A stretch of DNA of 64,000 bases from Alphaproteobacteria bacterium (GTDB lineage: Bacteria; Pseudomonadota; Alphaproteobacteria; UBA7985): the NCBI GenBank assembly GCA_965658725.1, contig CBFHUI010000004.1:2825-66824 (forward strand), given 5' to 3'. Of this stretch, positions 9,809 to 59,607 are shown one piece after another. The translations under genes and the position numbers were made by a program. Every line of letters starts with the position of its first letter. Position 1 is the first letter of the stretch. Below the pieces are notes generated by a model. It did not search any database, was not told the origin of the DNA, and saw only the letters and a list, made by a program, of their open reading frames with translations.

Positions 9809-11659
9809 ATGTGGTCCCTCACGCCTGCGCTGCTGCGCGCCCTAGACCCTGAAACCGCGCACCACGTGACTTTGCGCGGGTTGCGGCTGGGGCTGCACCC
9901 TCGTTTTCGCCAGCGTAAAGCGGCGCCCGCAGGTCAGCTGTTTGGCAAAGACCTGCCCAACCGCCTGGGCCTTGCAGCCGGGTTCGACAAGGACGCTGAG
10001 GCCGTCGCGGCACTGGCGGCGCTGGGCTTTGCGGCGGTTGAGGTTGGCTCGGTTACCCCGCAGCCCCAACCGGGAAACCCGCGCCCCCGCGTGTTCCGCC
10101 TGCCCGCCGACCGCGCTGTCATCAATCGTTACGGTTTTAACTCTGGCGGCCACGATCTGGTGCGCCGCAACCTCGACCGTCTTCGCCCGGAGCAGCGCCC
10201 GCCGCTGTTGGGCGTCAATCTGGGGGCCAACAAGACCTCCGAGAATGTTCCAGCGGACTTCGCGCTGGGTGTCAGCCGGTTTGCCGACATTGCTGATTAT
10301 CTGGTCATCAACGTATCCAGTCCAAACACGCCGGGCCTGCGGGATCACCAGACCATCGACGCGCTGGCTCGCATCCTCGACCTCGCCCTCGATGCCCGCG
10401 CACAGACCGCACCGACGCCGCTGATGCTCAAGATTGCCCCTGATCTAGCCGATGAAGACGTCGCCGCCATCGTTGATCTTGCGCTCGACCGGGGGATCGA
10501 GGGCCTGATCGCGACCAACACCACCATTGCCCGGCCCGACGGCCTGAAGGGCGCAGCGCAGACCCAAGCGGGCGGGCTATCCGGTCAGCCGCTGTTCGAG
10601 CGTGCGACCGAAGTGCTGACATCCATCCGGGAGCAGGCTGACGACCGCCTCGTCGTCTTTGGCACTGGCGGTGTTTCGACCCCGGAGCAGGCGCAGGAAA
10701 AGGTCCGCCGGGGCGCTGATCTGGTCCAGCTCTACACGGGCCTGATTTATGGCGGTCCGGCACTGGTCCGGCCGCTCATGCAGGCGGTTTCGCTGCCGAC
10801 GAAGACCCAGCGGGTGAGCGGGCTCAATCAGCTGATCGACGAGCGTCGCTATCGCGGGCTGATCGTCGATCTGTGGGGGGTCATGCACAACGGTAAGGCG
10901 CTCTTCCCCGAAGCGGTCGAGGCGTTGCGCCGCGCCCGGCAGCGGGGGTTGCAGGTGCAGTTCCTCTCCAACGCACCGCGCCGCGCGCACTCCATCGCTG
11001 GCCTGTTGGAGAAAATGGGCCTCCGGGCCGAGAGCTACGACGGCATTGTCTCCAGCGGTGAAGAAAGCTGGCAGGCGCTGCGCGACCGAACGGCGCTGTT
11101 CTATGAAGAACTTGGCCCGCGCTGCTTCCATTTGGGAGCGGGTGAGAAAGACGCAAACATGCGCGAAGGGCTGGATTTTGCCTTTCAGGATCAGCTCGAC
11201 GGCGCAGACTGGATCCTCAACACCGGCCCAGCCGCCAGCACGGATATCGCCGAGTGGCTGCCGCTGCTGCGGAAGGCGCTGGCGCTGGACCTTCCCATGG
11301 TGTGCGCCAACCCGGACCGCGTGGTCATGCGAGGCGAGTCCAAGGAGCTGTGCGCGGGCGCGCTCGCTGAGTGGTACGAGGCCGAGGGCGGGGTCGTCAG
11401 CTGGCACGGCAAGCCCTATCCATCGGTTTACGCCACCGCCCGCCGCGCCATGAACCTCCCGCGCCACGAAGTCCTTGCCATTGGCGACAGCTTCACCACC
11501 GACGTTGCGGGGGCGCAGACGGCGGGGATCGACGTCCTGCTGGTCAACACCGGCATCCACCAAAGCGACCTCGATGGCGATCTGATGGGCGGCGTTGACC
11601 GCCTCTCTGTCGAAAAAGGCCTGCGCCCGACGTTTGCGGCTGACAGGTTGCAGTTCTAA
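9809..11659 (+). CDS. pyrD: Fusion: quinone-dependent dihydroorotate dehydrogenase + HAD-IIA hydrolase (TIGR01459-like)
   Basis: Residues 1-~330: LAAGFDK, NRYGFNS, VINVSSPNTPGLR, KIAPDL, GGLSG, LYTGLIYGGP. Residues ~336-616: DLWGVMHNG, FLSNAPR, CANPD, HGKP, IGDSFTTDVAGA. No stop codon between the parts. Confidence 0.9.
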   Translation: MWSLTPALLRALDPETAHHVTLRGLRLGLHPRFRQRKAAPAGQLFGKDLPNRLGLAAGFDKDAEAVAALAALGFAAVEVGSVTPQPQPGNPRPRVFRLPADRAVINRYGFNSGGHDLVRRNLDRLRPEQRPPLLGVNLGANKTSENVPADFALGVSRFADIADYLVINVSSPNTPGLRDHQTIDALARILDLALDARAQTAPTPLMLKIAPDLADEDVAAIVDLALDRGIEGLIATNTTIARPDGLKGAAQTQAGGLSGQPLFERATEVLTSIREQADDRLVVFGTGGVSTPEQAQEKVRRGADLVQLYTGLIYGGPALVRPLMQAVSLPTKTQRVSGLNQLIDERRYRGLIVDLWGVMHNGKALFPEAVEALRRARQRGLQVQFLSNAPRRAHSIAGLLEKMGLRAESYDGIVSSGEESWQALRDRTALFYEELGPRCFHLGAGEKDANMREGLDFAFQDQLDGADWILNTGPAASTDIAEWLPLLRKALALDLPMVCANPDRVVMRGESKELCAGALAEWYEAEGGVVSWHGKPYPSVYATARRAMNLPRHEVLAIGDSFTTDVAGAQTAGIDVLLVNTGIHQSDLDGDLMGGVDRLSVEKGLRPTFAADRLQF

Positions 11660-11828
11660 TTTGAATTATCTGAGATTACGCGAAAAAAGACGTTGAAGCC
11701 TTTGTAAAACTGCGTTATTTCTTCTGGCATTATGCGGCAGTGTCGATTCATTTTTACGACACGCCTTCGATTTTTCAGCCCCGTGTTTGAGTCTCGGGGC
11801 GCGCATTTGATGTTCAGGAGCAGTGCCC

Positions 11829-14570
11829 ATGACGGCGCAGTTAAAGCCCGCTTCACGCTTTGAATCCTACACACCGACGCTTGTCTTCGCCCTGATCATG
11901 ACGGGTGCCTGGCTGGTCGCGGGTTGGTCTTTGTTTGGCTACTACGGCGGCCCGACCGCCTTTGCCAGCCTGAGTCCAGCGGAAGTAGGGCTGGTGATTT
12001 GCGGGGGCTTGCTGCCGCTTATGGCGATCTGGATCCTGTGCGGCATGCTGGTTGTAGGCACGCGCTTGCGCAACTCGATGATGCAGGAGCTTAGCACCCT
12101 GCGCACCGTGAACATCATGCCCGAGGAAACCCAGGCTCACATCAAGTCGATCACCCGCGCCTTTGAAGACCGCGTTGGGCACTTGCAGGGCGTGACCAGC
12201 GGTATTCTGACCTCGCTGGAGTCCGCGACAGGCCAGTTTGAGCGGCAGTCGGATATGCTGGAGGCGCTGTCCTACCGCGTTGATGAGCAGTCGAACACGA
12301 TTTCGACCGCACTGAGCATTCAAGGCAATCAGCTGACCGGGGCCGAAGGACGGATTGACCGCATGGTCAACCGCATGAAGCACGCCATGGAAGACGTCCG
12401 CGATGCGGGCGAGACCTTCCGCGAGAACCTCTCCAAGCCGATCGCTGAAGTCCAAGACACGCTCGCCGACGCGACCGCTTCGATCCATACGCAGATCGAC
12501 GACATCTGGTCCCGGCTGGAGCTGCTCGACGCCGCGCAGGCCGAGACCGAAGAAGCCACGGCCCGGACACGCGCCGCGCTGGAAGCGGAGTCCGAGAACC
12601 TGCGCCACACCGCTGACGAGGCCCTCGCGAATGTAGAGAGCATGTCGCTCAAGCTGACCGGGCAGATTGATTTGCTCAAGACTGTGTCTGACGATGCCAA
12701 CGACGTGGCGGATCAGATGCAGGGCCGGTTGGAAGAGCAGTCCAAGGCGCTGCGGCAGGCGGGCAATGACCTTTCCACCCACGCCAACGAACTGCATCAG
12801 GCGATTCAGGATCAGGCGGCGCACCTCACGCATTTGCAGGAGTCCGTTGATACATACGGCGGCGCGATCTCTGAAGAGTTCGAAAAGAAGATCGAGAAGC
12901 TCATGAATTCGGCACGCGAGGCGGCGGCTATTGTCGGTGAGGAAACAGCACTTGCCACCCGCCGCGCGATCGACGAGCTGTCGGAGAACGGCGACAAGCT
13001 CACCGGCAACATCAGCTTCGTCTCCGAGCGGGTTGAGCAGCTGACCGAAGCGCTCGAAACCGGCGCGGCGACGCTCAAGGAAACCGCGCTCTCGGCCAAG
13101 GCGGCGATGCAGGCCGGGGCTGACGAAGCGGCGAAGACCATGACGGACTCGACCAAGGGCGCAGAGGTTCGCTTTGTCGAGCTCGGCGACGCTTGGGCCG
13201 ATGCGCTGGAGGAGCAATCTTCGCGGCTCGAAAGCTTGCAGGAGATGGCAACCGCGGCTGAAGACAGCACCTTTGCCCGCGCTGAAGAGGCTGTTGTGCA
13301 CCTCGCCGAGCGCCTCGACCATGCGCTGCAGGAACGGTTTGAGGATGAACACGGCGCCTTTAACACCGCGCAACGGCAGATTGATGCTGCGGCACAGCGG
13401 ACCGTGAACAACTACCACCGCTTGGTCGGCAGCTTTGTCGATGATCTGACCAAGAAGGCCGGGGCTGAGATGGAATGTCTCATGACCTGGGGGCAGGAAA
13501 TTCCGCGCGCCGCCGAGCACCTGCGCGAAACAGCGGCTGAGGTTGTTCACTTGATGGACGAGAAGACCAAGGCTCTTCTTACCCGCACCGATGAAGTGCG
13601 CCACGCGACCACGGATGCACTGTCTGCAACGCAAAGCCTGTTCGATGGGATCTCGCAGGGGCCGGAGCGCCTGACGGAGACGGTGACGGCGCTGCGCGAT
13701 GCGTCGTCTTCGGCGGTCGAAGATCTACGCCTGCAAACCGAGACGCTGAACTCCTTGCTGGTGGACAGTCGCAATCGGTTGGTCCGGTTGACTGAGAAGT
13801 TCCATCAGGGCGTCAACGACGACGCGGTTGACTCTCGTCTCATGCGTTTGGCCGAGGCGATCGAAGCGGGTGAAGGCGCGCTGCGTCAGGCGGCGTCTGC
13901 GTTTGACGATACGACCCATCAGGCGGCTGAGTCCGCGCATTCGGCGGCAGGCCGTTTGCTCGAAACCTCTCGCCTTGTCGGCGCGCAAGTTGAGATGCTG
14001 CGGGATATGACCACCAACACGGAAAGCGCCAACAACCTGCGGCGTGTGACCGATCAGGCTGACGAGCTGCGGGTGATCCTTGAACAAATCGGGGTCGCGG
14101 CGGAGAACCACCAGCTGACGCTGGTCCGCGTGACGGAGGAGGCTAAGAGCCAGTCGGAAAAGCTGCTCCAGACGGTGAAGCACTCCGAGCGAGATGCCTT
14201 CCTCAACGAAGCGTCATCCATGGTTGAGGCTCTGCACCAGGCGGCGATTGACGTTGACACCATCCTCGACGGTGATCTGCCGGGCGATGTGGTGATGGCG
14301 ATCAATGCGGGTGACCGAGGCGTGTCTGTCCGCCGCCTGCTCAGCCGCTACACTCCTGCAGGCGCTGCGGCCATGGCGGACCTTTATGCCCGCGACCGGG
14401 CCTTTACGGCACAGGTGGACCGCTACTTGGAAACCTTCGACAGCCTGCTCGAACAGGCCAACCGCGTGGACCGGTCCAAGCTGCTGCACACGACCTTCCT
14501 GACCGCAGACATTGGCAAGCTTTACGTCTTCCTTGCACGGTCGATCGGGGTGATGCAGGCCGCCGAGTAG
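11829..14570 (+). CDS. Membrane-anchored long helical protein, TipN/GPR(RgsE)-like polar scaffold
   Basis: Two N-terminal TM helices, about 750 aa A/E/L/T/Q-rich helical region, C-terminal LYARDRAFTAQVDRYLETFDSLL...FLTADIGKLYVFLARSIG resembling the conserved end of alphaproteobacterial polar landmark proteins. Confidence 0.65.
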   Translation: MTAQLKPASRFESYTPTLVFALIMTGAWLVAGWSLFGYYGGPTAFASLSPAEVGLVICGGLLPLMAIWILCGMLVVGTRLRNSMMQELSTLRTVNIMPEETQAHIKSITRAFEDRVGHLQGVTSGILTSLESATGQFERQSDMLEALSYRVDEQSNTISTALSIQGNQLTGAEGRIDRMVNRMKHAMEDVRDAGETFRENLSKPIAEVQDTLADATASIHTQIDDIWSRLELLDAAQAETEEATARTRAALEAESENLRHTADEALANVESMSLKLTGQIDLLKTVSDDANDVADQMQGRLEEQSKALRQAGNDLSTHANELHQAIQDQAAHLTHLQESVDTYGGAISEEFEKKIEKLMNSAREAAAIVGEETALATRRAIDELSENGDKLTGNISFVSERVEQLTEALETGAATLKETALSAKAAMQAGADEAAKTMTDSTKGAEVRFVELGDAWADALEEQSSRLESLQEMATAAEDSTFARAEEAVVHLAERLDHALQERFEDEHGAFNTAQRQIDAAAQRTVNNYHRLVGSFVDDLTKKAGAEMECLMTWGQEIPRAAEHLRETAAEVVHLMDEKTKALLTRTDEVRHATTDALSATQSLFDGISQGPERLTETVTALRDASSSAVEDLRLQTETLNSLLVDSRNRLVRLTEKFHQGVNDDAVDSRLMRLAEAIEAGEGALRQAASAFDDTTHQAAESAHSAAGRLLETSRLVGAQVEMLRDMTTNTESANNLRRVTDQADELRVILEQIGVAAENHQLTLVRVTEEAKSQSEKLLQTVKHSERDAFLNEASSMVEALHQAAIDVDTILDGDLPGDVVMAINAGDRGVSVRRLLSRYTPAGAAAMADLYARDRAFTAQVDRYLETFDSLLEQANRVDRSKLLHTTFLTADIGKLYVFLARSIGVMQAAE

Positions 14571-14596
14571 GCGCTCGCCCGGATAGGACGATCAAG

Positions 14597-14636
14597 AAAA
14601 GCGCCGGCTGCTCAGGTGAAACTGAGCGGCCGGCGC
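14597..14636. terminator. Intrinsic terminator between convergent genes
   Basis: AAAA-GCGCCGGCTGCTCAG-GTGAAA-CTGAGCGGCCGGCGC, 15-bp stem; T-tract on the minus strand. Confidence 0.85.
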
Positions 14637-14667
14637 GTGTCGTTCTGGGGCGGTTGAGGCGGGGCGT

Positions 14668-15237
14668 CTACTGGCCGCGCGACACAGCTTGCATGATGTA
14701 ACTGGCGGAACCCGGGCGGGCATAGACTTCGGGGAAGCCTTCCGCGCTGTACGCAGGCGCGGCGTAGCCCATGGGCCTCGCGCTGGGAACGCCGTAACCG
14801 GGCAGGCCAGAGGTATCGTGCACCACCATGACGTTCGAACCGTAGCCCTGCATCTGATCGGCGGCGGCGACTTGCCCCTGATAGGACAGGATCGACTGCG
14901 CCTGCTCAGCGTAAGTCGCGCTGTCCTGCATGCTGTATCCATGGCCGTGGCCAGAGACGTGGGCCGAGCCGTAACCGGCCGATACCGCAGGCGCGGCGTA
15001 CTGGACGTGGGGCGCGTACGTGGGCTGGGCGGCATAACCGGTCTTGGTATAGGCTTGGTGCGTGTTGGCTGCTGCAACGTGCGCGTTGCCGCCGTATGAG
15101 AAGGTCACAATCGACCCTGCTGGAGCGGGCGCGTAGCCGGTTTTTGAGTAGCTGTAGGATTGGGCTTGGGCAGTTTGTACAGCGAAGACCCCGGCGATCA
15201 GCGCCGCCGGGATGATCAAATATTATAAGGTCCGCAT
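14668..15237 (-). CDS. Secreted Tyr/Ala/Gly-rich low-complexity protein B; in-frame TAA at codon 5 (or alternative TTG start at 15219)
   Basis: ATG CGG ACC TTA TAA TAT TTG ATC ATC CCG = MRTL*YLIIPAALIAGVFAVQTAQA; mature part has YxKTGYA twice and YAAP/YAP repeats. Confidence 0.7.
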
Positions 15238-15323
15238 GAAACTCTGCTTCTTCAAAAGGTCTAAATTGGTCGTCCAAACGGGCGCTCGGATTGGGAGCGA
15301 AGCGCCGCAGTAGCGAGATAAAC

Positions 15324-15339
15324 TGCAATGGTAGGGCCA
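15324..15339 (-). promoter_or_regulatory. sigma54 promoter of protein B gene
   Basis: Minus strand TGGCCCTACCATTGCA: GG-N10-GC with TGGC and TTGCA. Confidence 0.65.
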
Positions 15340-15459
15340 GTCGGGAGGAAGGACTGGCTCTGCGCATAAGGGCGGTTTACTCGGACCAAATCACCAAAAG
15401 AGAGACAATAAAGTGTCTTGCACGCAGAAGGGGCAGAACCGAATTGCGACGGTGGTCGC

Positions 15460-15999
15460 TTACTGAGTCGGAATAATTTGCGGGTAGGACGCAGATTGGG
15501 CCGGCTGAGCATAGGGGTTCGCCGCTGGCTGAGCTTGCGGGTAGCCCTGCGCGAGTGCCTGCGGAGCAACCTGCTGCTGGCCATACTGAATGACCTGCTG
15601 TTGCTGTTGCTGCTGGACCATCGCCCCTTCAACGCCGCTCACCACAGGCAGAACAGCGGCTTCATACACCACCGGCTTTTGCGTGGTGTAAACCTGCTGC
15701 ACTGGCAACTGAACAGGCTGTTGGTAGTAGGTGAAGGTCTGCGGCGCGTAGACCGGAATGCGGGCCTTGCTGTAGACCGCAGGCGCGCCGCCGGTCGCGG
15801 CGTAGCCGGTGCCGTGGGCAGACGGCATGTGATAGCCTTGGCCCTGGTGCGTGAAGTTCACCACGCTGTTGGGGTTGATCGCAACCTGGGGCGCGTAGCC
15901 GGTCTTGTTGTAGACCATGGGAGCCTGAAATTGTGCGGAGGCCACAGTCGGTGCGATCATCAGAGCACCGAGGCCTGCAAGCAGAAGAGAACGTAACAT
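15460..15999 (-). CDS. Secreted Gln/Tyr/Pro-rich low-complexity protein A (paralog of B)
   Basis: AGGAA Shine-Dalgarno; signal peptide MLRSLLLAGLGALMIAPTVASA; YNKTGYAP...SVVNF; Q7 tract; no Cys/Trp/Asp. Confidence 0.8.
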   Translation of the reverse strand: MLRSLLLAGLGALMIAPTVASAQFQAPMVYNKTGYAPQVAINPNSVVNFTHQGQGYHMPSAHGTGYAATGGAPAVYSKARIPVYAPQTFTYYQQPVQLPVQQVYTTQKPVVYEAAVLPVVSGVEGAMVQQQQQQQVIQYGQQQVAPQALAQGYPQAQPAANPYAQPAQSASYPQIIPTQ

Positions 16000-16050
16000 G
16001 GGCAGTTCCTAGAGGAATGAAACGAAAAGCAGAGAGCTTCCCGCCTCCTC

Positions 16051-16066
16051 CGCAAACGCGATACCA
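16051..16066 (-). promoter_or_regulatory. sigma54 promoter of protein A gene
   Basis: Minus strand TGGTATCGCGTTTGCG: GG-N10-GC with TTGC; predicted TSS about 41 nt before the ATG. Confidence 0.6.
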
Positions 16067-16129
16067 AGTCAGTTTTCACTACTTTCGGGCAGATTAGGCC
16101 CCACTTTGCCTCGTTTTTCCCTACGCTCA

Positions 16130-16161
16130 CGCATAAGAAAATGCGGTGACAAAGTTATGCG
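16130..16161. promoter_or_regulatory. Palindromic candidate upstream activator sequence
   Basis: CGCATAA-N18-TTATGCG with nested CGCAT-AAGAAA-ATGCG, about 90-120 nt upstream of the predicted sigma54 TSS. Confidence 0.4.
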
Positions 16162-16174
16162 CCCCCTATCCCCA

Positions 16175-17170
16175 TTATCCGACATCGTCCTTGAGGCTTC
16201 TGGCCAGCAGTTGGGTCATGAGGTCCTGAGGCGAGAGATTGTCCCGGATGAGCTGCCCCACGGCCTGCGAGATCGGCAGATCCAGCGCAGCGGTGCGCGC
16301 TCCGGCCAGCAGGGCGAGCGCGGCCTGCGCGCCTTCGACCGTGATGCCTTGGGCGAGTAGGGCATCAGCCTGCCCGCCTAGTCCCAGCTGAACACCAAAG
16401 CGATGATTGCGCGACTGGCTGTCCTGACAGGTCAGCGCCAGATCGCCAAGACCGGCCAACCCAGCAGCCGTCCGCTGCTGCCCGCCGTAAACAGCGATGA
16501 CCCGCTCGATCTCCCGGAGGCCGCGCGTCATCAGTGCTGATCGCGCGCTCGCGCCCAGCCCCATACCGTCCGAACAGCCACAGGCGATGGCAATCACGTT
16601 CTTGAGGGCCCCGCAGACCTGCACGCCAACAGGGTCGTCGCGCTGATATAGGCGGAGTTGGGGTGTGCTCAGCTGTTCGATCATGGCGGTTTGAACGCCG
16701 TTGGCGGCGAGCGTCAGAGCGGTCGGACGACCTGCAAACAAGTCTGCGGCAAAGGAAGGCCCGCTCAGTACCGCCAGACCACCGGGCGGGCTCAAGGCTT
16801 CGCTCAACAAGTCGCCCGTAGCGGTGGCAAAGCCCTTGGAAACGGTGACAACTTGGCAAGTCTGGGGCACGTGCGGGGCCAGCGCGGCAAAGACCTCAGC
16901 CTGCGCGCGTGCCTTGACCGCAAGGATCAGGACGTCGCCAGGCGCCATTGCTTCGCCTGCCGCGCCAAAGCGGTCGAGCGTGCCAGCCCGTACACCAGTG
17001 AGCGGCAAACAACCCGGTACGCGCGGGTTGTGGCCATCGTGGTTCAGCCGTTCTGCCTGCTCAGGATCCCGGCACCAAAGCTGCACCGACACATCGGCCG
17101 AGAGCCAGACTTTGGCCAGCGCGGAGCCAAAGGCACCGGCGCCAACAATATGCACGCTCCCCCGGCTCAC
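16175..17170 (-). CDS. gpsA: NAD(P)H-dependent glycerol-3-phosphate dehydrogenase
   Basis: IVGAGAFGSALA, SKG, LSGPSFA, GALKNVIAIACG, GLGDLALTC..SRN, VEG. Confidence 0.95.
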   Translation of the reverse strand: MSRGSVHIVGAGAFGSALAKVWLSADVSVQLWCRDPEQAERLNHDGHNPRVPGCLPLTGVRAGTLDRFGAAGEAMAPGDVLILAVKARAQAEVFAALAPHVPQTCQVVTVSKGFATATGDLLSEALSPPGGLAVLSGPSFAADLFAGRPTALTLAANGVQTAMIEQLSTPQLRLYQRDDPVGVQVCGALKNVIAIACGCSDGMGLGASARSALMTRGLREIERVIAVYGGQQRTAAGLAGLGDLALTCQDSQSRNHRFGVQLGLGGQADALLAQGITVEGAQAALALLAGARTAALDLPISQAVGQLIRDNLSPQDLMTQLLARSLKDDVG

Positions 17171-17275
17171 TGGCCTGCGTTCAAAAAGTGTTGAAGCATA
17201 GCGGCTCCTCCCTTGTTCTCAGGGCCATTAGTCTGCACATCACTTGTATTCCATATCAGTAGAAAGCGCCGCTTG

Positions 17276-19186
17276 ATGACCGACAATACAGCCAACCCCG
17301 GCCAATCCAAAGACGCCGCCGGGTCGGCAGTTCCCCGGACCAAAGGCCCTTCCGCCGGGACGCCAGCTGGCTCTGGCGGCGCGCCGGATACGCCAAAGGC
17401 GTCTTACGAGCGGGACGGCAACCAATTCGTTACTGCACTGAACCTGCTGCGCTACCTCTGGCCTGCTGACAAGCCGCGTCTGCGGTTGCTGTTCGTTCTG
17501 ACTGGACTGGCGATTTTGGCTGGACAGCTGTTCCTGGCCGTGACGCCGTTGGTGTTTGCAACGGCGGTGGATGCGGTTGGGGGTGAGGGCGCCTTTCCGA
17601 ACGCTTCTCTGGCGTTGATCGTCGGTCTCGTCGCCGCCTTTGGCCTCGCGCGCTTGCTGGCGCAGGGCAGTCAGGAGCTGAGTTCCGCGCTGTTTATCTT
17701 CGTGGGACAGAACGGGATTCGCACGGTTGCGCTGGAAACCTTCAAACACCTGCACCAGTTGAGCCTGCGCTTCCACCTCGACCGTCAGACCGGGGGGTTG
17801 AGCCGGGCGATTGAGCGGGGGACAAAGGGCATCGAATTCGTGCTGCGGATGATGACCTTTAACCTCGTGCCCACGACTTTTGCGATTGTGATCGTAAGCG
17901 TCATCCTACTGGTCAACTTCGGTGCGATTTACGCCATCATCACCTTTGTCACCGTGGTCGGTTACATCATTTACACGATCGCCGTAACCGAATGGCGCAT
18001 CAAGTATCGCCGGATGATGAACCAGACCGACTCAGAAGCGACGACCAAGGCTGTAGACTCGCTGCTGAACTACGAGACGGTGAAGTATTTCTCCAACGAA
18101 GACCACGAAGCCGTGCGCTATGACAGCGCGCTGCGAGGCTACGAGTCCGCTGCGGTGAACAGCCAGCTGTCCCTGTCACTGCTCAACCTCGGCCAAGGCG
18201 TGATCATCGCGGGTGGGCTGGTGCTGCTGCTCAGCCTGGCTGTGCCGTCCGTCATGTCGGGCGAGATGACCGTGGGCGACTTTGTGGCGATTCAAGCCTA
18301 TCTGATCCAGCTTTACCTCCCGCTCAACTTCCTCGGTTTCGCCTACCGTGAGATCAAACAGGGGCTGGTGGACATGGAGTACATGTTCAACCTGCTCGAA
18401 GTGGAGCGCGAAGTGCCTGACGGGCCTGGCGCAACAGATATTGCCGTAAGCGGCGGTCTGCTGGCCTTCCGCGATGTTGATTTTGGCTACAACAACGATC
18501 GCCAGATTCTGCACAAGCTCGATTTTGAGGTGCAGCCGGGAAAGACGTTGGCCATTGTCGGGCCGAGTGGTTCGGGCAAGTCTACCATCGGCCGCATGCT
18601 GTTCCGCTTCTATGACGTCTGGGACGGTGGCATTGAGATCGACGGGCAAGACTTGCGGGGCGTGACGCAGTCTTCCCTGCGCGAGGTGATCGGGATCGTG
18701 CCGCAGGACACCGTGCTGTTCAACGACACCATCGCCTATAACATCGCCTATGGCCGCCCGAATGCGAGCCGCGATGAGGTGATCGAAGCGGCCAAGCTGG
18801 CGCAGATCCACAACTTCATCCTTGATCTCCCCGAAGGCTACGACACTCGCGTGGGTGAGCGAGGGCTCAAGCTCTCAGGCGGGGAGCGTCAGCGGGTCTC
18901 GATCGCGCGGACGATCCTGAAAAATCCGGCCATCTTGCTGTTCGACGAAGCCACTTCGGCCCTCGACACCGACACCGAGTCGGCGATTCAGGCGTCTTTG
19001 GCAGCGGTTTCCCGGGATCGCACCACGCTCGTAATCGCGCACCGCCTCTCGACTGTGGTCGATGCAGACGAGATTATTGTGCTCGATAAGGGCCGAATCG
19101 TCGAAAAAGGCGCGCATCAGGCGCTTTTGGAGCGCGATGGGGTCTATGCGCACATGTGGCATTCGCAACAGGAAGCTGATGAGTAA
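17276..19186 (+). CDS. ATM1/HMT1-type ABCB half transporter (TMD+NBD)
   Basis: SLRFHLDRQTGG, DSLLNYETVKYF, GPSGSGKST, LSGGERQR, LLFDEATSALD; ATG 17276. Confidence 0.92.
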   Translation: MTDNTANPGQSKDAAGSAVPRTKGPSAGTPAGSGGAPDTPKASYERDGNQFVTALNLLRYLWPADKPRLRLLFVLTGLAILAGQLFLAVTPLVFATAVDAVGGEGAFPNASLALIVGLVAAFGLARLLAQGSQELSSALFIFVGQNGIRTVALETFKHLHQLSLRFHLDRQTGGLSRAIERGTKGIEFVLRMMTFNLVPTTFAIVIVSVILLVNFGAIYAIITFVTVVGYIIYTIAVTEWRIKYRRMMNQTDSEATTKAVDSLLNYETVKYFSNEDHEAVRYDSALRGYESAAVNSQLSLSLLNLGQGVIIAGGLVLLLSLAVPSVMSGEMTVGDFVAIQAYLIQLYLPLNFLGFAYREIKQGLVDMEYMFNLLEVEREVPDGPGATDIAVSGGLLAFRDVDFGYNNDRQILHKLDFEVQPGKTLAIVGPSGSGKSTIGRMLFRFYDVWDGGIEIDGQDLRGVTQSSLREVIGIVPQDTVLFNDTIAYNIAYGRPNASRDEVIEAAKLAQIHNFILDLPEGYDTRVGERGLKLSGGERQRVSIARTILKNPAILLFDEATSALDTDTESAIQASLAAVSRDRTTLVIAHRLSTVVDADEIIVLDKGRIVEKGAHQALLERDGVYAHMWHSQQEADE

Positions 19187-38824: not shown

Positions 38825-40150
38825 TTAGAGGTAGAGGTTCATCGGCTGACCGCTGGACAACCGCGCGCGGTCAAAGTCGGTCAGACGGTTGTCGTTCACC
38901 AGCGTGTTGAGCGTTGCCGCGTAGTATGTCGGATCTTCGCTGTAGCGGTTGAGATGCGGGATCAAATCCCGCGCTGATGCCATCCGACCCGCTCGACGCA
39001 GGCCAGCGCGTGCTTTGCGCATTTCGAGATAAGCACTGTTAGTGTTCAGGTTCATCGCGTAGCTGCGGATCGACTCTTCTAGCGAGGTGAAAGTGCGGAC
39101 GCGGTGGTTCTGGTCTGCATCGCGGTCGGACGGGGTCATGCCCGGTTGGCTGGAATCCCAGACCCGCTGCCCGAACAGGGCGTTGCCTTGCTGCACATAC
39201 CGCGAAGTACCCCAGCCACTTTCCAGACCCGCCTGTGCGAGAATTAGGCTCACTGGCAGGACATCGACGCGCTGGAGGAGGTTGGTCGTGTTGCTCTGAA
39301 TATCGTATTTCGCCGCGATGGTGCGCACGGATGCAGGGGCGTTGGTGATCGGGCCGCTGTAGCCGCTGCGCTCGATGGTCGCGCGCTCGGCCGCGATTTC
39401 AGCGTTCACTTTGATCGAAAGGGGCAGCAACAGCCGGAGGAACACGTCTTTGTTCATCGGTACGCTGTTGTTCATGTCGTTCGGTAGCTTGCGCGCGAAG
39501 ACCGGCGGAACCGGCGCGCCGCGTCGCATGGTGTCGAGCAGGTAGCCGTTCTGGTCGAAGAACCGGCCAACGCCTTCCAAACCACCGGGAACCGACTTGG
39601 AGACGGCGTTGGAGGAGGGAGCCAGGGGCGCGAGCGCGCGCTGCGGGTTGACCTGCGGCGCGCGGGTCGGAACGAACTGCCCACCCATCGGGGTTGCGGC
39701 GGAGAGATCGAAGGACTGGCCGTTGCTGACAACAGTGGTGCTGGCCCGCTGCGGAGCCGCGGCAACTTGCGCCTGACGCTCGGCCTCAGCCTTAGCCGCC
39801 TTTTCCGCTTCGCGCTCAGCGCGTTCGTCGGATCCGGTGACCTGTGGCAGCCATTCGTTGACGATGTAGTTGAAGGTATCACCAGTGATCTCAAAGCCTT
39901 CACCGTCTACCTTGATCGCGCGCTCTTCATCGAAGGAAAAACGCTCGCTCACCTGATCAGGGAAGGCCTCTACCCGGCCTTCAAACGCCTTCATGCCCTC
40001 AGCAACGCGCGTCGGCGCGCTGGCGAGGTCAAAGGTGCTGCCGGGGCTCAGTTCTTCATCATCGATGGTCGTGGTGGACGAACAGGCACCAAAGGCCAGA
40101 AGCAGCAGGCAAGCTGAAAGAGGGGTCGAGCGACGAAGGCGGCCGGTCAA
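38825..40150 (-). CDS. Lipoprotein with C-terminal Bax-like glucosaminidase (GH73-like) domain
   Basis: GAGGA SD then TTG at 40150; LLLLAFGAC lipobox-like; LAQAGLESGWGTSRY..GNALFGQ, SYAMNLNTNSAY. Confidence 0.75.
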   Translation of the reverse strand: MTGRLRRSTPLSACLLLLAFGACSSTTTIDDEELSPGSTFDLASAPTRVAEGMKAFEGRVEAFPDQVSERFSFDEERAIKVDGEGFEITGDTFNYIVNEWLPQVTGSDERAEREAEKAAKAEAERQAQVAAAPQRASTTVVSNGQSFDLSAATPMGGQFVPTRAPQVNPQRALAPLAPSSNAVSKSVPGGLEGVGRFFDQNGYLLDTMRRGAPVPPVFARKLPNDMNNSVPMNKDVFLRLLLPLSIKVNAEIAAERATIERSGYSGPITNAPASVRTIAAKYDIQSNTTNLLQRVDVLPVSLILAQAGLESGWGTSRYVQQGNALFGQRVWDSSQPGMTPSDRDADQNHRVRTFTSLEESIRSYAMNLNTNSAYLEMRKARAGLRRAGRMASARDLIPHLNRYSEDPTYYAATLNTLVNDNRLTDFDRARLSSGQPMNLYL

Positions 40151-40298
40151 AGGAATATCCTCACAGAAAAAATACGGGCTTGAAACGCCACGCCTGCTTA
40201 ATGGGTTCGCCTGCCGAATCCCACGCAAATACGGCGGTTTGAGGATTATGTGACTATGCAGACCCCGTGACCCCCGATGAGGGTCGCATTAAGCTCCA

Positions 40299-57826: not shown

Positions 57827-59464
57827 TTAGCTCTTGGACTCGAGCGTTTCCCAGTGCTGACGCTTGCGGTAGATCGTTGAAGCAGAGATCCCAAGCAGTG
57901 CGGCTGCTTTCGGGATGTTACCACCACAGGACTCGATGGCGTCCTCGATGGCCTGCTTCTCTGTTTCCCACAGGGGCAGAATGCCTTCAGCACGCCGCCG
58001 GATTGGCGCGCCTTCACCAGCAGCAGCCGGGTTGACGATGCCCTCAATCGGGGCAGTGGAGCGCGGAGACAGCGGGTTGGGCGTGCTGGTCGTCGCGCGC
58101 AGGGCTTCTGCGGCGAGGTTCTCGGCCAGCGGACTAGCGGGTGCGGACGGCACGCTGTTCTGCGGAGGAGCCACGGAGACCGGGGATGCGCCGCCTTGGT
58201 TGGGTAGAGCGGTCGGCGCGCCAGCGGTGAACATGGCGGGTGGGGTATGCGCGTGAACACCCGGAACGCGGCCCGGGCCAGACCCTGCCGGGTTTACGGG
58301 TGCTGGCACCATATCGGCTGTTACCTGCTCACCCTTGTTCAGGACGACGATGTTACGGATAACGTTCTGCAGCTGGCGGACGTTGCCCGGCCAAGGATAG
58401 TTCAGGAACATGCGGGAGACTTCGGGGTCGAAATCGCGGAAGCGCTTGTTCTCTTCAGCAGCAAACTCCACCAGAATCTTGCGGGCAATGTCGAGCGTAT
58501 CGCCCTCACGCGCGCGCAGCGGTGGCAGGTGGATCGGAATGACGTGCAGGCGGTAGTAGAGGTCTTCGCGGAAGCGGCCTTCGCCGATTTCCACCAGCGG
58601 ATCGCGGTTGGTGGCGCAGATGAAGCGGATATCAACCTTCTGCTGCTTGGTTCCACCGACTTTGGTGAAGGTGCCGGTCTGGATAAAGCGCAGCAGCTTG
58701 GACTGCAGGTGCAGGTCCATTTCGCAGACTTCGTCGAGGAACAGCGTACCGCCCTCCGCCTGCGAGGCCGCGCCTTCGTGATCGCTGATCGCGCCGGTAA
58801 AGGCGCCTTTCACGTGACCGAAGATTTCGGATTCCATCAGGTCTTTCGGGATCGCTGCACAGTTCAGCACGACAAGCGGCTTTTTCGCGCGCGGGGAAAG
58901 ACGATGGATGGCTTCGGCCGTGACTTCTTTACCTGTACCAGACTCGCCGGTGATGAAGGTTGTGGCCTTGGACGGCGCGGCGGATTCCACCATGCGGTAG
59001 ATGACCTGCATGGCCTTGGACTTGCCAATGAAGCCCTGAAAGCCCTTGGTCGAGACCGGCTTGGGGTTGGCGATGACCTGCTGCTTGATGCTCTCGCGCT
59101 TCAAAGCGGCGGTGAGCGTCTGGACGAGGCGCTGTCGGTTGAACGGCTTGACGAGGAAGTCGTACGCCCCGCCGCGCATGGTCTCGACCGCCATGTTGAT
59201 CGAGCCGTGAGCCGTAATCATGATGACGGCGGAGTTGAGGCCGCGCTCCTGGATAAAGTCGAGGATCTCCGTGCCGTTCATATCGGGCAGACGAACGTCC
59301 AGCAAAATGACGTCGGGTTCATCGTTGGAGAGATGCTTGAGCGCTTCCTTGCCACTGCTGGCGTGCGTGATGTCGAGCGGCTCCTCTTTCAGATATTCCT
59401 TATACAGGGAAACCAGAGGCTGCTCATCTTCAACAAGCAAAACTTTAAAGCGTTGTGCGCTCAT
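57827..59464 (-). CDS. sigma54-dependent response regulator (REC-AAA+-Fis HTH), LuxO-like
   Basis: VED, LLDVRLPDM, TAHGS, QGFIG, GESGTGKE, GAFTGA, FLDEVCEMDLHLQSKLLRFIQTGTF, WPGNVRQLQN, ILPLWETEKQAIEDAI..C.GNIPKAA. Confidence 0.9.
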   Translation of the reverse strand: MSAQRFKVLLVEDEQPLVSLYKEYLKEEPLDITHASSGKEALKHLSNDEPDVILLDVRLPDMNGTEILDFIQERGLNSAVIMITAHGSINMAVETMRGGAYDFLVKPFNRQRLVQTLTAALKRESIKQQVIANPKPVSTKGFQGFIGKSKAMQVIYRMVESAAPSKATTFITGESGTGKEVTAEAIHRLSPRAKKPLVVLNCAAIPKDLMESEIFGHVKGAFTGAISDHEGAASQAEGGTLFLDEVCEMDLHLQSKLLRFIQTGTFTKVGGTKQQKVDIRFICATNRDPLVEIGEGRFREDLYYRLHVIPIHLPPLRAREGDTLDIARKILVEFAAEENKRFRDFDPEVSRMFLNYPWPGNVRQLQNVIRNIVVLNKGEQVTADMVPAPVNPAGSGPGRVPGVHAHTPPAMFTAGAPTALPNQGGASPVSVAPPQNSVPSAPASPLAENLAAEALRATTSTPNPLSPRSTAPIEGIVNPAAAGEGAPIRRRAEGILPLWETEKQAIEDAIESCGGNIPKAAALLGISASTIYRKRQHWETLESKS

Positions 59465-59607
59465 CAATATCAAATCCCATGCCAAAGCGTAGGCAATAAC
59501 AATTTACGGCTAAACAATATGCGACGTTGTAATTCTCGATCTAAGTACGCTGCGAAAACCACTGAAATCAAGGATTTTTTTCGGTTTTGACGCAATTCGT
59601 TTGATCG

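Follow-up and report, generated by a model that had tools for sequence, protein, structure and literature searches.

What kind of protein is encoded by two small, adjoining genes whose products appear to be exported, carry very little charge and match no known family? The question is raised by a locus in an alphaproteobacterium of the UBA7985 lineage, where two genes, here called A and B, occupy positions 14,668 to 15,999 of a 64,000-nucleotide stretch of contig CBFHUI010000004.1 (assembly GCA_965658725.1); this whole stretch is referred to below as the window. Our computational analysis describes the pair as a two-gene module that matches no known family, is unusual in composition and has a clear regulatory signature; it does not yet establish a new mechanism. 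A first, sequence-only reading had called two adjoining open reading frames (ORFs) on the minus strand, and a listing of the ORFs in the window recovers both. In B, the frame that is open in the window is shorter than the ancestral one:

15460-15999, minus strand: gene A, a 179-amino-acid precursor with an ATG start, in which a signal peptide leads into a conserved core and then a Gln-rich tail that varies
14668-15237, minus strand: gene B, the ancestral ORF of 189 amino acids, with its ATG at 15235-15237
14668-15219, minus strand: the B ORF that is open in the window, 183 amino acids from a TTG start

That A and B code for protein is close to certain, and the way in which they vary shows that both are under purifying selection. 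In a comparison with four strains whose DNA is 98-99% identical, A shows 11 differences (9 synonymous and 2 non-synonymous) and B shows 7 (5 synonymous, 1 non-synonymous and 1 nonsense). Against more diverged homologues, the ratio of non-synonymous to synonymous substitution rates (dN/dS) ranges from 0.14 to 0.34 in A and from 0.18 to 0.28 in B, with 0.14-0.15 in the neighbouring gene gpsA. Antisense to A, at 15418-15996 on the plus strand, lies an ORF of 192 amino acids with a coding-like GC content at third codon positions; it was rejected as a spurious shadow of GC-rich sequence because its changes are 9 non-synonymous against 2 synonymous.

The mature proteins are about 160 residues long, A being rich in Tyr, Gln, Pro and Ala, and B in Tyr, Ala, Gly and Ser. 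The residue counts made by hand in the sequence-only reading are right: A has 14 Tyr, 31 Gln (including a run of seven) and only two acidic residues (2 Glu, no Asp), B has 18 Tyr, and neither protein has any Cys or Trp. Charged residues make up a fraction of 0.038 in mature A and 0.067 in mature B, Pro accounts for 7-12% of the residues and Tyr for 9-11%.

The same reading had seen no recognisable domain, and the searches agree, with no characterised family matched. Neither single sequences nor family profiles of A and B gave a meaningful match in Pfam, NCBIfam, PHROGs or the sequences of the PDB; A, B and 12 B homologues remained without a Pfam match, Curlin_rpt included, even at E <= 1, and Rfam had no match anywhere in the window. 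A full-text search of the literature on secreted prion-like or tyrosine-rich, periplasmic disordered proteins turned up no description of the A/B family. For family A, a word search found 11 homologues, and an exhaustive profile search of 1.84 billion representatives returned 11 clusters at 50% identity, all of them the family itself; for family B, a profile search found 31 proteins. All members come from aquatic, mostly marine, metagenomes, and the metagenome-assembled genomes (MAGs) that carry them are labelled Alphaproteobacteria bacterium, 'Geminicoccus sp. MED756' or 'Rhodospirillaceae bacterium MED834'.

The shared module, export signals and protein anatomy

The link between the two proteins is a short N-terminal module built around a tyrosine-containing motif, which, as had been noticed from the letters alone, reads YNKTGYAP in A and YSKTGYAP in B, with a second copy, YTKTGYAA, in B:

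15781-15918, minus strand: the A copy of the shared module, VYNKTGYAP, then SVVNFTHQGQGYHM, then GTGYAATGG, with a beta-hairpin at residues 46-59
15028-15156, minus strand: the B copy of the shared module, YSKTGYAP, then SIVTFSYGGNAHV, then YTKTGYAA

The expectation that homologues would keep the motif is borne out, since a YxKTGYAP-type module is conserved in both families; across the A homologues, its residues Y30, K32, G34, Y35, A36 and P37 are invariant. An exact 6-mer shared by A and B, as found here, was reached in about 0.9% of shuffles that preserved composition, and a pairwise BLASTP alignment of the two proteins gives E 9e-4 over 45 residues. When the two family profiles are aligned with hhalign, they match with a probability of 95%, and with the signal peptides removed the probability is 94%, at E 1.5e-7 over 43 columns. 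A B-family profile run against 5.8 billion sequences also retrieves an A-type protein, P0042, at E 5e-3. The hairpins predicted by AlphaFold2 fall in homologous positions, with strands at 46-51 and 54-59 in A and at 43-48 and 51-56 in B. Further along, both proteins carry a second, looser Y-x-K copy, which reads Y[NS]KAARIP[IV]YAP in the A family (VYSKARIPVYAP in A of the window) and YTKTGYAA in B.

Outside these roughly 45 residues, the alternative alignments offered by hhalign contain no significant similarity between A and B. One pair of segments that looks alike by eye, VVYEAAVLPVV in A and VVVxDTSxLPGY in B, was tried as homologous and rejected, as it too falls among the alternative alignments that are not significant. 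The claim that A and B are tandem paralogues thus survives for the N-terminal module, on the strength of the hhalign alignment, and fails for the whole proteins. As far as sequence comparison can tell, what the two genes have in common by descent is a portable N-terminal module, not the entire proteins.

Distant relatives of A bear on the same point. A scan of metagenomes for VYEAAVxPVV recovered the known clade and two additional contigs, L047 and L053; it also returned many acyl-CoA-synthetase-like enzymes, which share the peptide by chance and were set aside. At positions 3012-3989 of L047, and in the same gene on L053, the A core, from the signal peptide to VYEAAVVPVV, continues into a longer protein: a linker some 50 residues long and very acidic comes first, and a stretch of at least 176 residues, in which Gly, Thr, Ser and aromatics abound, follows and runs off the contig. 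The core matches family A with a probability of 95% (E 4.6e-8), and the fusion gene adjoins a gene for a 583-amino-acid coiled-coil protein, not gpsA. Because the A core is joined to other regions in these contigs, it can be regarded as a portable module. Pfam, NCBIfam and the PDB hold no match to the C-terminal region of L047, which may, from its composition, be an outer-membrane domain.

Ahead of the module, both families begin with what we read, heuristically from sequence and hydropathy, as a signal peptide:

15934-15999, minus strand: the signal peptide of A, residues 1-22, MLRSLLLAGLGALMIAPTVASA followed by QFQ, with Arg3, a hydrophobic core and an A-x-A site

In the A homologues R3 is kept in nearly all sequences, and A22 and Q25 are invariant. 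The ancestral signal peptide of B, MRTLKYLIIPAALIAGVFAVQTAQA, has by the same motif and hydropathy reading a charged n-region, a hydrophobic h-region and an A-x-A site with cleavage before Q. The Sec-type signal peptides proposed earlier are therefore found in A and in ancestral B, but the B of the window is left without an n-region, owing to a stop at codon 5 that is described below. Other routes were considered and rejected. With zero Cys in A and B there is no lipobox Cys, and the motifs of lipoprotein, prepilin (G/FxxxE) and PEP-CTERM (a PEP-transmembrane-Arg cassette) sorting are absent from every A and B sequence. The proteins end in ...IIPTQ or ...SYAQ (A) and in ...SRGQ or ...PSEN (B); an outer-membrane beta-barrel of the OmpX, OmpA or OmpW kind was discarded, given the lack of a C-terminal aromatic beta-signal, the Pro content and AlphaFold2 models without a barrel. 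Export of both A and B by Sec is, on these signals, very probable.

Beyond the signal peptide and the module, each family has one well-conserved motif or block set among stretches that vary:

15640-15678, minus strand: the invariant hydrophobic motif of A, KPVVYEAAVLPVV, residues 108-120, which is the best-conserved stretch of family A
15463-15639, minus strand: the tail of A, rich in Gln, Ala and Pro and including the run of seven Gln, variable in length and repeat number and poorly alignable
14710-14832, minus strand: the conserved C-terminal block of B, VxVVxDTSxLPGYG ... P ... A..FPxV ... G

In family A the order of elements is the signal peptide, VY[SN]K[AT]GYAP, the NVVA[YF] hairpin, MPSAxGTGYAATGG, Y[NS]KAARIP[IV]YAP, a set of PVQYQQ[AV] units (1-3 copies among the homologues, always upstream of the invariant motif), KPVVYEAAVLPVV and the Gln-rich tail. 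Residues P109 to V120 are invariant in 10 sequences, and the distant homologues P0050 and L047 keep VYEAAVVPVV. In family B the signal peptide and the shared module are followed by a variable region of Pro, Ala and Tyr, and then by a conserved VVVxDTSxLPGYG...FPxVY...G block, in which D141, S143, L145 to G149, P155, A165, F168, P169, V171 and G176 are invariant in 12 sequences. The number of repeats in B varies among strains, giving variants of 213, 219 and 238 amino acids. Such variation in repeat number between strains fits surface or structural proteins, where it is often seen.

A and B are predicted to be largely disordered: the mean predicted local distance difference test score (pLDDT) of the AlphaFold2 models is 45.6 for A and 32.5 for B, and the only secondary structure in each is the one beta-hairpin. 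The aromatic residues are spaced more evenly than in shuffled sequences in B (p = 0.002) and in the A homologue P0005 (p = 0.001). The prion-like composition proposed by the sequence-only reading holds in part. Low charge, an abundance of Tyr and Gln and predicted disorder are all present, but the classical criterion for Q/N-rich prion-like proteins is at least 30 Gln plus Asn per 80 residues, and the peak density is 24 in A and 12 in B (28 in the A homologue P0005), below that criterion.

Sigma-54-type promoters and upstream elements

How might such genes be switched on? Promoters read by sigma-54 (RpoN) follow the consensus TGGCAC-N5-TTGC, whose signature is a GG and a GC set 10 nucleotides apart. 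Each of the two genes is preceded by a box of this type, and each box has further conserved sequence upstream of it:

16052-16066, minus strand: the sigma-54-type -24/-12 box of A, TGGTATCGCGTTTGC, GG-N10-GC, 67 nucleotides ahead of the ATG
15325-15339, minus strand: the sigma-54-type -24/-12 box of B, TGGCCCTACCATTGC, 102 nucleotides ahead of the ancestral ATG
16130-16162, minus strand: an inverted repeat, GCGCATAA-N18-TTATGCG, a candidate enhancer centred about 80 nucleotides upstream of the -24 box of A
15362-15369, minus strand: a single TTATGCGC element about 25 nucleotides upstream of the -24 box of B, with the same motif as the arms of the repeat upstream of A

These boxes are the best-conserved blocks of the spacers in which they lie, reading TTTGGTATCGCG[CT]TTGCGG between gpsA and A, and TGGCCC-N5-TTGC between A and B. 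A core fixed a priori, TGG-N8-TTGC, has 17 matches on the two strands of the window, and the only two that are intergenic are the boxes of A and B, both on the coding strand. Conservation was judged on 10 regions upstream of A and 9 upstream of B, against a background of 2.5e-4 per nucleotide per strand. The A box occurs once per spacer, at -66 to -69 from the ATG, in 9 of 9 loci of the main clade. The B box, likewise single in each spacer, lies at -100 to -129 in the loci whose contig includes the start of B (in L007 the contig ends within the spacer), the sole exception being L011, where the -12 element is TTAC. Upstream of the distant homologues on L017, L047 and L053 the canonical TGGCAC-N5-TTGC is found. 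A scan of 14400-17400 for sigma-70 promoters gave no matches.

The upstream elements are conserved as well. Both arms of the inverted repeat ahead of A are kept in 7 of 7 loci, and the sequence TTAYGCGY, which has 5 sites in the 64-kb window, has 3 of them in the promoter regions of A and B. L001 and L010 have TTA[TC]GCGC in their B spacers too, as do the distant homologues in their upstream regions. The inverted repeat is thus a candidate binding site for an activator. The window encodes one protein of the appropriate class:

57827-59485, minus strand: an enhancer-binding response regulator of the NtrC family, with a receiver, a Sigma54_activat domain (AAA+, with GAFTGA) and HTH_8

The presence of this GAFTGA activator in the window suggests that these cells use sigma-54. 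Its best NCBIfam model is LuxO, at 630 bits, under the cut-off of 800, and it is not specifically tied to A and B. Unusually, its DNA-binding domain is preceded by a Pro/Ala-rich linker some 100 residues long. Taken from the boxes and their conservation, control of A and B by sigma-54 is probable. At the far end of the pair, transcription of B would run into a strong hairpin:

14594-14636, minus strand: an intrinsic terminator, made of a GC-rich hairpin and then UUUUCUU, that separates B from the convergent gene for a 915-amino-acid protein

The terminator has a folding energy of -40.8 kcal/mol and a z-score of -4.4, and none of 200 shuffles is as stable.

Conservation, broken alleles and possible roles

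In every locus that is long enough, the gene order is the same: a divergent ATP-binding cassette (ABC) exporter, then gpsA, A and B in that order, next a convergently transcribed gene whose product is a coiled-coil protein with a membrane anchor (915 amino acids in the window, 735-923 in other loci) and a pyrD fusion. Elsewhere the window holds housekeeping genes (nusA-infB, queuosine genes, lnt, ybeY, miaB, lolA, accA, aroKB, cobST and dxs), and GC content is uniform throughout. Given the conserved order, the housekeeping surroundings and the uniform GC, the pair is a core feature of its clade and not part of an island. A phage origin was also considered and rejected, as viral contigs hold no relatives of A or B.

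Conservation of the locus does not mean that every copy is intact, and the B gene of the window is itself interrupted:

15223-15225, minus strand: a premature TAA stop at codon 5 of B, where relatives have AAA (Lys5)

The frame in the window begins ATG CGG ACC TTA TAA TAT TTG. At 15225 the window has T where L013-L016 have A, and codon 5 is intact in all 11 of the close relatives that were fetched. The truncated product is found on 1 contig only, and 12 cluster members have 189 amino acids; among independent contigs with an identical A allele, 7 of 7 begin B at the ATG and 5 of 7 hold the complete 189-amino-acid B. B homologues of 189-191 amino acids start with MRTLKYLIIPAAL, as does P0012, which has 189 amino acids and 97% identity. 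The TTG start lies two codons past the stop and inside the signal peptide, so that the charged n-region (R2, K5) is gone from the B of the window. The stop could be an error of the consensus or else a rare allele, null or leaky, with reinitiation at the TTG being conceivable; the promoter box and terminator of this B are intact despite it. Elsewhere, an in-frame TAA at 6166-6168 of L011 (MAG Co_bin_324) replaces a conserved Tyr of A (PGPVT-stop-HQQ), and it is the box of B in the same locus, about 100 nucleotides before 6694, that has TTAC in place of TTGC. Together these may reflect decay of the gene pair in that genome. An appreciable part of the database entries for A and B, namely P0009, P0040, P0044, P0046, P0047 and P0049, are frameshifted, truncated or internally deleted versions, which could come from slippage in CAG-rich repeats, from assembly noise or from real inactivation.

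What, then, might the pair do? The reading that we prefer, and hold only tentatively, is that A and B are conditionally expressed, Sec-exported, self-associating proteins of the envelope or a matrix, docked through their shared module. The two lineage-restricted genes would be switched on conditionally, each from its own sigma-54 promoter, when an enhancer-binding activator fires. Because both have the TTATGCG element upstream, one activator would probably serve the two. The precursors would be exported by Sec and cleaved after A-x-A, leaving mature proteins with an N-terminal Gln. The module, YxK[TA]GYxP with its short beta-hairpin, might then dock A and B to one another or to an envelope partner that they have in common, and the low-complexity remainder, with its regular tyrosines and variable repeats, would drive self-association, giving a layer of gel or fibres within the envelope or at the surface. 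What we infer is that sigma-54 is required in vivo, where the proteins end up, that they self-assemble and that their role is structural. With no outer-membrane export genes in the window, the periplasm is the default location, and the extracellular matrix suggested earlier, along with an adhesin or cyst coat, is left unsupported.

Several observations weigh against this proposal. The low pLDDT values were obtained from alignments of 11-12 sequences and may reflect shallow data rather than true disorder, and the even spacing of aromatics is not significant in A itself (p = 0.09) or in P0018 (p = 0.11). Genes for outer-membrane secretion, assembly or cross-linking are absent beside the pair and throughout the window, and rpoN is not in these 64 kb. 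The null alleles of B in the window and of A in L011 mean that the genes are at least sometimes dispensable, or that the assemblies contain errors. The pair is, moreover, known from MAGs of uncultured organisms only.

Proteins that stay in the periplasm might instead be soluble, disordered and protective or buffering, acting as a stress chaperone or holdase, or as a sponge for a ligand or metal, and being induced through sigma-54 by envelope or nutrient stress, as analogues of ZraP or SilE. This is conceivable but, in our view, doubtful. It would account for Sec signals with no outer-membrane export machinery nearby, for the predicted disorder, for promoters that imply inducible expression and for a His/Met-rich patch, HVSGHGHGYSM, in the B proteins of the window's clade, a patch that other B homologues do not conserve. 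It also has a precedent in E. coli, where zraP is a sigma-54-dependent gene with a -24/-12 promoter and an NtrC-family activator, and encodes a small, Sec-exported periplasmic protein; sigma-54 control of an envelope protein, as proposed here, is thus not without example. ZraP, however, is a helical member of the Spy/CpxP family, whereas A and B have neither sequence similarity to it nor predicted helices, and the searches revealed no homology to the Spy/CpxP/ZraP or SilE families. Known periplasmic chaperones are helical and charged, unlike these proteins of near-zero charge and high Tyr, Pro and Val, and the combination of short conserved motifs with a varying number of repeats suits a structural or surface role better. 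Unlikely, too, is that the A/B core is a surface-displayed or barrel-associated module, by which the proteins attach to, or exit through, an outer-membrane partner encoded elsewhere, to serve as an adhesin or as a coat exposed to phages or grazers. The fusions on L047 and L053 do join the A core, through the acidic linker, to a region with a composition like that of outer-membrane beta-barrels, and repeat polymorphism with occasional null alleles is what diversifying or negative selection typically leaves in exposed proteins. Yet the unmatched C-terminal region of L047 leaves its contig, so that a barrel there is a guess, A and B themselves have neither the aromatic beta-signal nor a predicted barrel, and no gene for a partner was identified.

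A classical functional amyloid, with a curli-like or Fap-like major subunit and a nucleator, is a very unlikely account of the pair, although the resemblance is easy to see. Like CsgB/CsgA and FapB/FapC, A and B are adjacent, partly homologous, small, Sec-exported and free of Cys, with polar residues of the Gln/Asn type (here Gln and Tyr), and A has the hydrophobic, beta-prone VVYEAAVLPVV; in a pair of this kind, one protein could nucleate or anchor the other. However, A and B contain no imperfect amyloid repeats of the curlin or Fap kind and match neither Curlin_rpt nor any other Pfam family, and their homology is limited to the module. In curli loci csgE, csgF and csgG sit beside the subunits, whereas the neighbours here are gpsA, the ABC exporter, the 915-amino-acid coiled-coil gene and pyrD, and genes like CsgEFG or FapF are absent from the window and related loci. 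Curli subunits fold into a beta-solenoid, while A and B, with 7-12% Pro, are predicted to be disordered apart from a single hairpin (a weak negative, as the alignments are shallow), and curli are controlled by sigma-S and CsgD, not by sigma-54-type promoters. Most improbable of all is that A and B are dispensable, fast-evolving, lineage-specific ORFs of no important function that are being lost. The premature stop in the B of the window, the A stop and mutated -12 element of L011, the truncated or frameshifted database variants and the very narrow taxonomic range all lean that way. Against it, dN/dS (0.14-0.34) is near that of the housekeeping gene gpsA, and even lineages whose synonymous sites are saturated show no change in motifs, promoter boxes or gene order. 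The stop in the window is a singleton among dozens of contigs, and many of the broken variants lie on short contigs of low coverage and may be assembly errors.

We think it fairly unlikely that the pair amounts to a new bacterial envelope material, in which sigma-54-switched, secreted 'sticker and spacer' proteins would condense or gel outside the cytoplasm by way of evenly spaced tyrosines, anchored by the hairpin; in a sister lineage the module would be joined to a membrane or barrel domain. The idea borrows from eukaryotic prion-like domains of the FUS type, with which A and B share a very low charge, spread-out tyrosines at 9-11%, spacers of Gln, Ser and Gly, and predicted disorder. They differ from those domains in being bacterial and Sec-exported, in their high Pro, Val and Ala, in a Q/N content under 30 per 80 residues, and in having invariant motifs and a hairpin module, so that the likeness is one of composition and not of homology. 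Much the same can be said of insect cuticle proteins, resilin, plant extensins and spore-coat proteins, which are likewise of low complexity, rich in Tyr, Pro, Ala and Gly, and built with short variable repeats, as in the P[VI]PY and PVQYQQ units of the A and B families, which vary in number. There is no homology to any of these, the dityrosine cross-linking suggested by the sequence-only reading would be speculative, no peroxidase or cross-linking enzyme is encoded near A and B, and the host is a Gram-negative organism not known to form spores or cysts. A further parallel, by description, is HfaA, the holdfast anchor of Caulobacter, a small secreted alphaproteobacterial protein that is reported to form stable multimers in a surface structure; its gene is in an operon with the export and anchor genes hfaB and hfaD, the like of which are not found beside A and B.

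If the preferred reading, of self-associating envelope or matrix proteins, is right, A and B would be exported low-complexity proteins of free-living marine Alphaproteobacteria that are easily tested and come with a regulatory handle and a portable module. Tyrosine-driven self-association would then extend from the eukaryotic cytoplasm to the bacterial envelope, and a new gene pair would join the sigma-54 regulon of a poorly known clade. Should they prove to be only a lineage-specific periplasmic pair, the value is smaller, namely two new orphan families and a clean case of conserved -24/-12 promoters, which could help in working out what the LuxO-like activator of these genomes controls.

Minor features of the locus

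In sister lineages, a hairpin of about 100 nucleotides lies just past the stop codon of A, once per locus (L001 8512-8611, L009 6476-6575 and equivalents in L002-L012). Its arms read TTATTCCGAC and GTCGGAATAA, and in L009 it folds at -55 kcal/mol (z -5.9) with some compensatory pairs. As a feature of the window it was rejected, being degenerate there (z about -1) with its left arm inside the 3' end of the A coding sequence (IIPTQ). On the other side of A, gpsA starts in the window with GTG, at 17170, and in the closest strains, L013 and L015, with ATG.

The convergent gene at 11823-14570 on the plus strand, which adjoins the pair in all loci, encodes the protein of 915 amino acids, with two N-terminal membrane helices followed by a long, apolipoprotein-like helical repeat; its architecture resembles that of polar landmark proteins such as Caulobacter TipN. 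Beyond it, at 9809-11659 on the plus strand, pyrD (dihydroorotate dehydrogenase) is fused to a HAD-type hydrolase domain in a protein of 616 amino acids, and the fusion is kept in related loci. Farther away, the minus-strand gene at 38825-40228 encodes a protein of 467 amino acids in which the sole assigned domain is a C-terminal glucosaminidase (a peptidoglycan hydrolase), the N-terminal 300 or so residues carrying no assignment.

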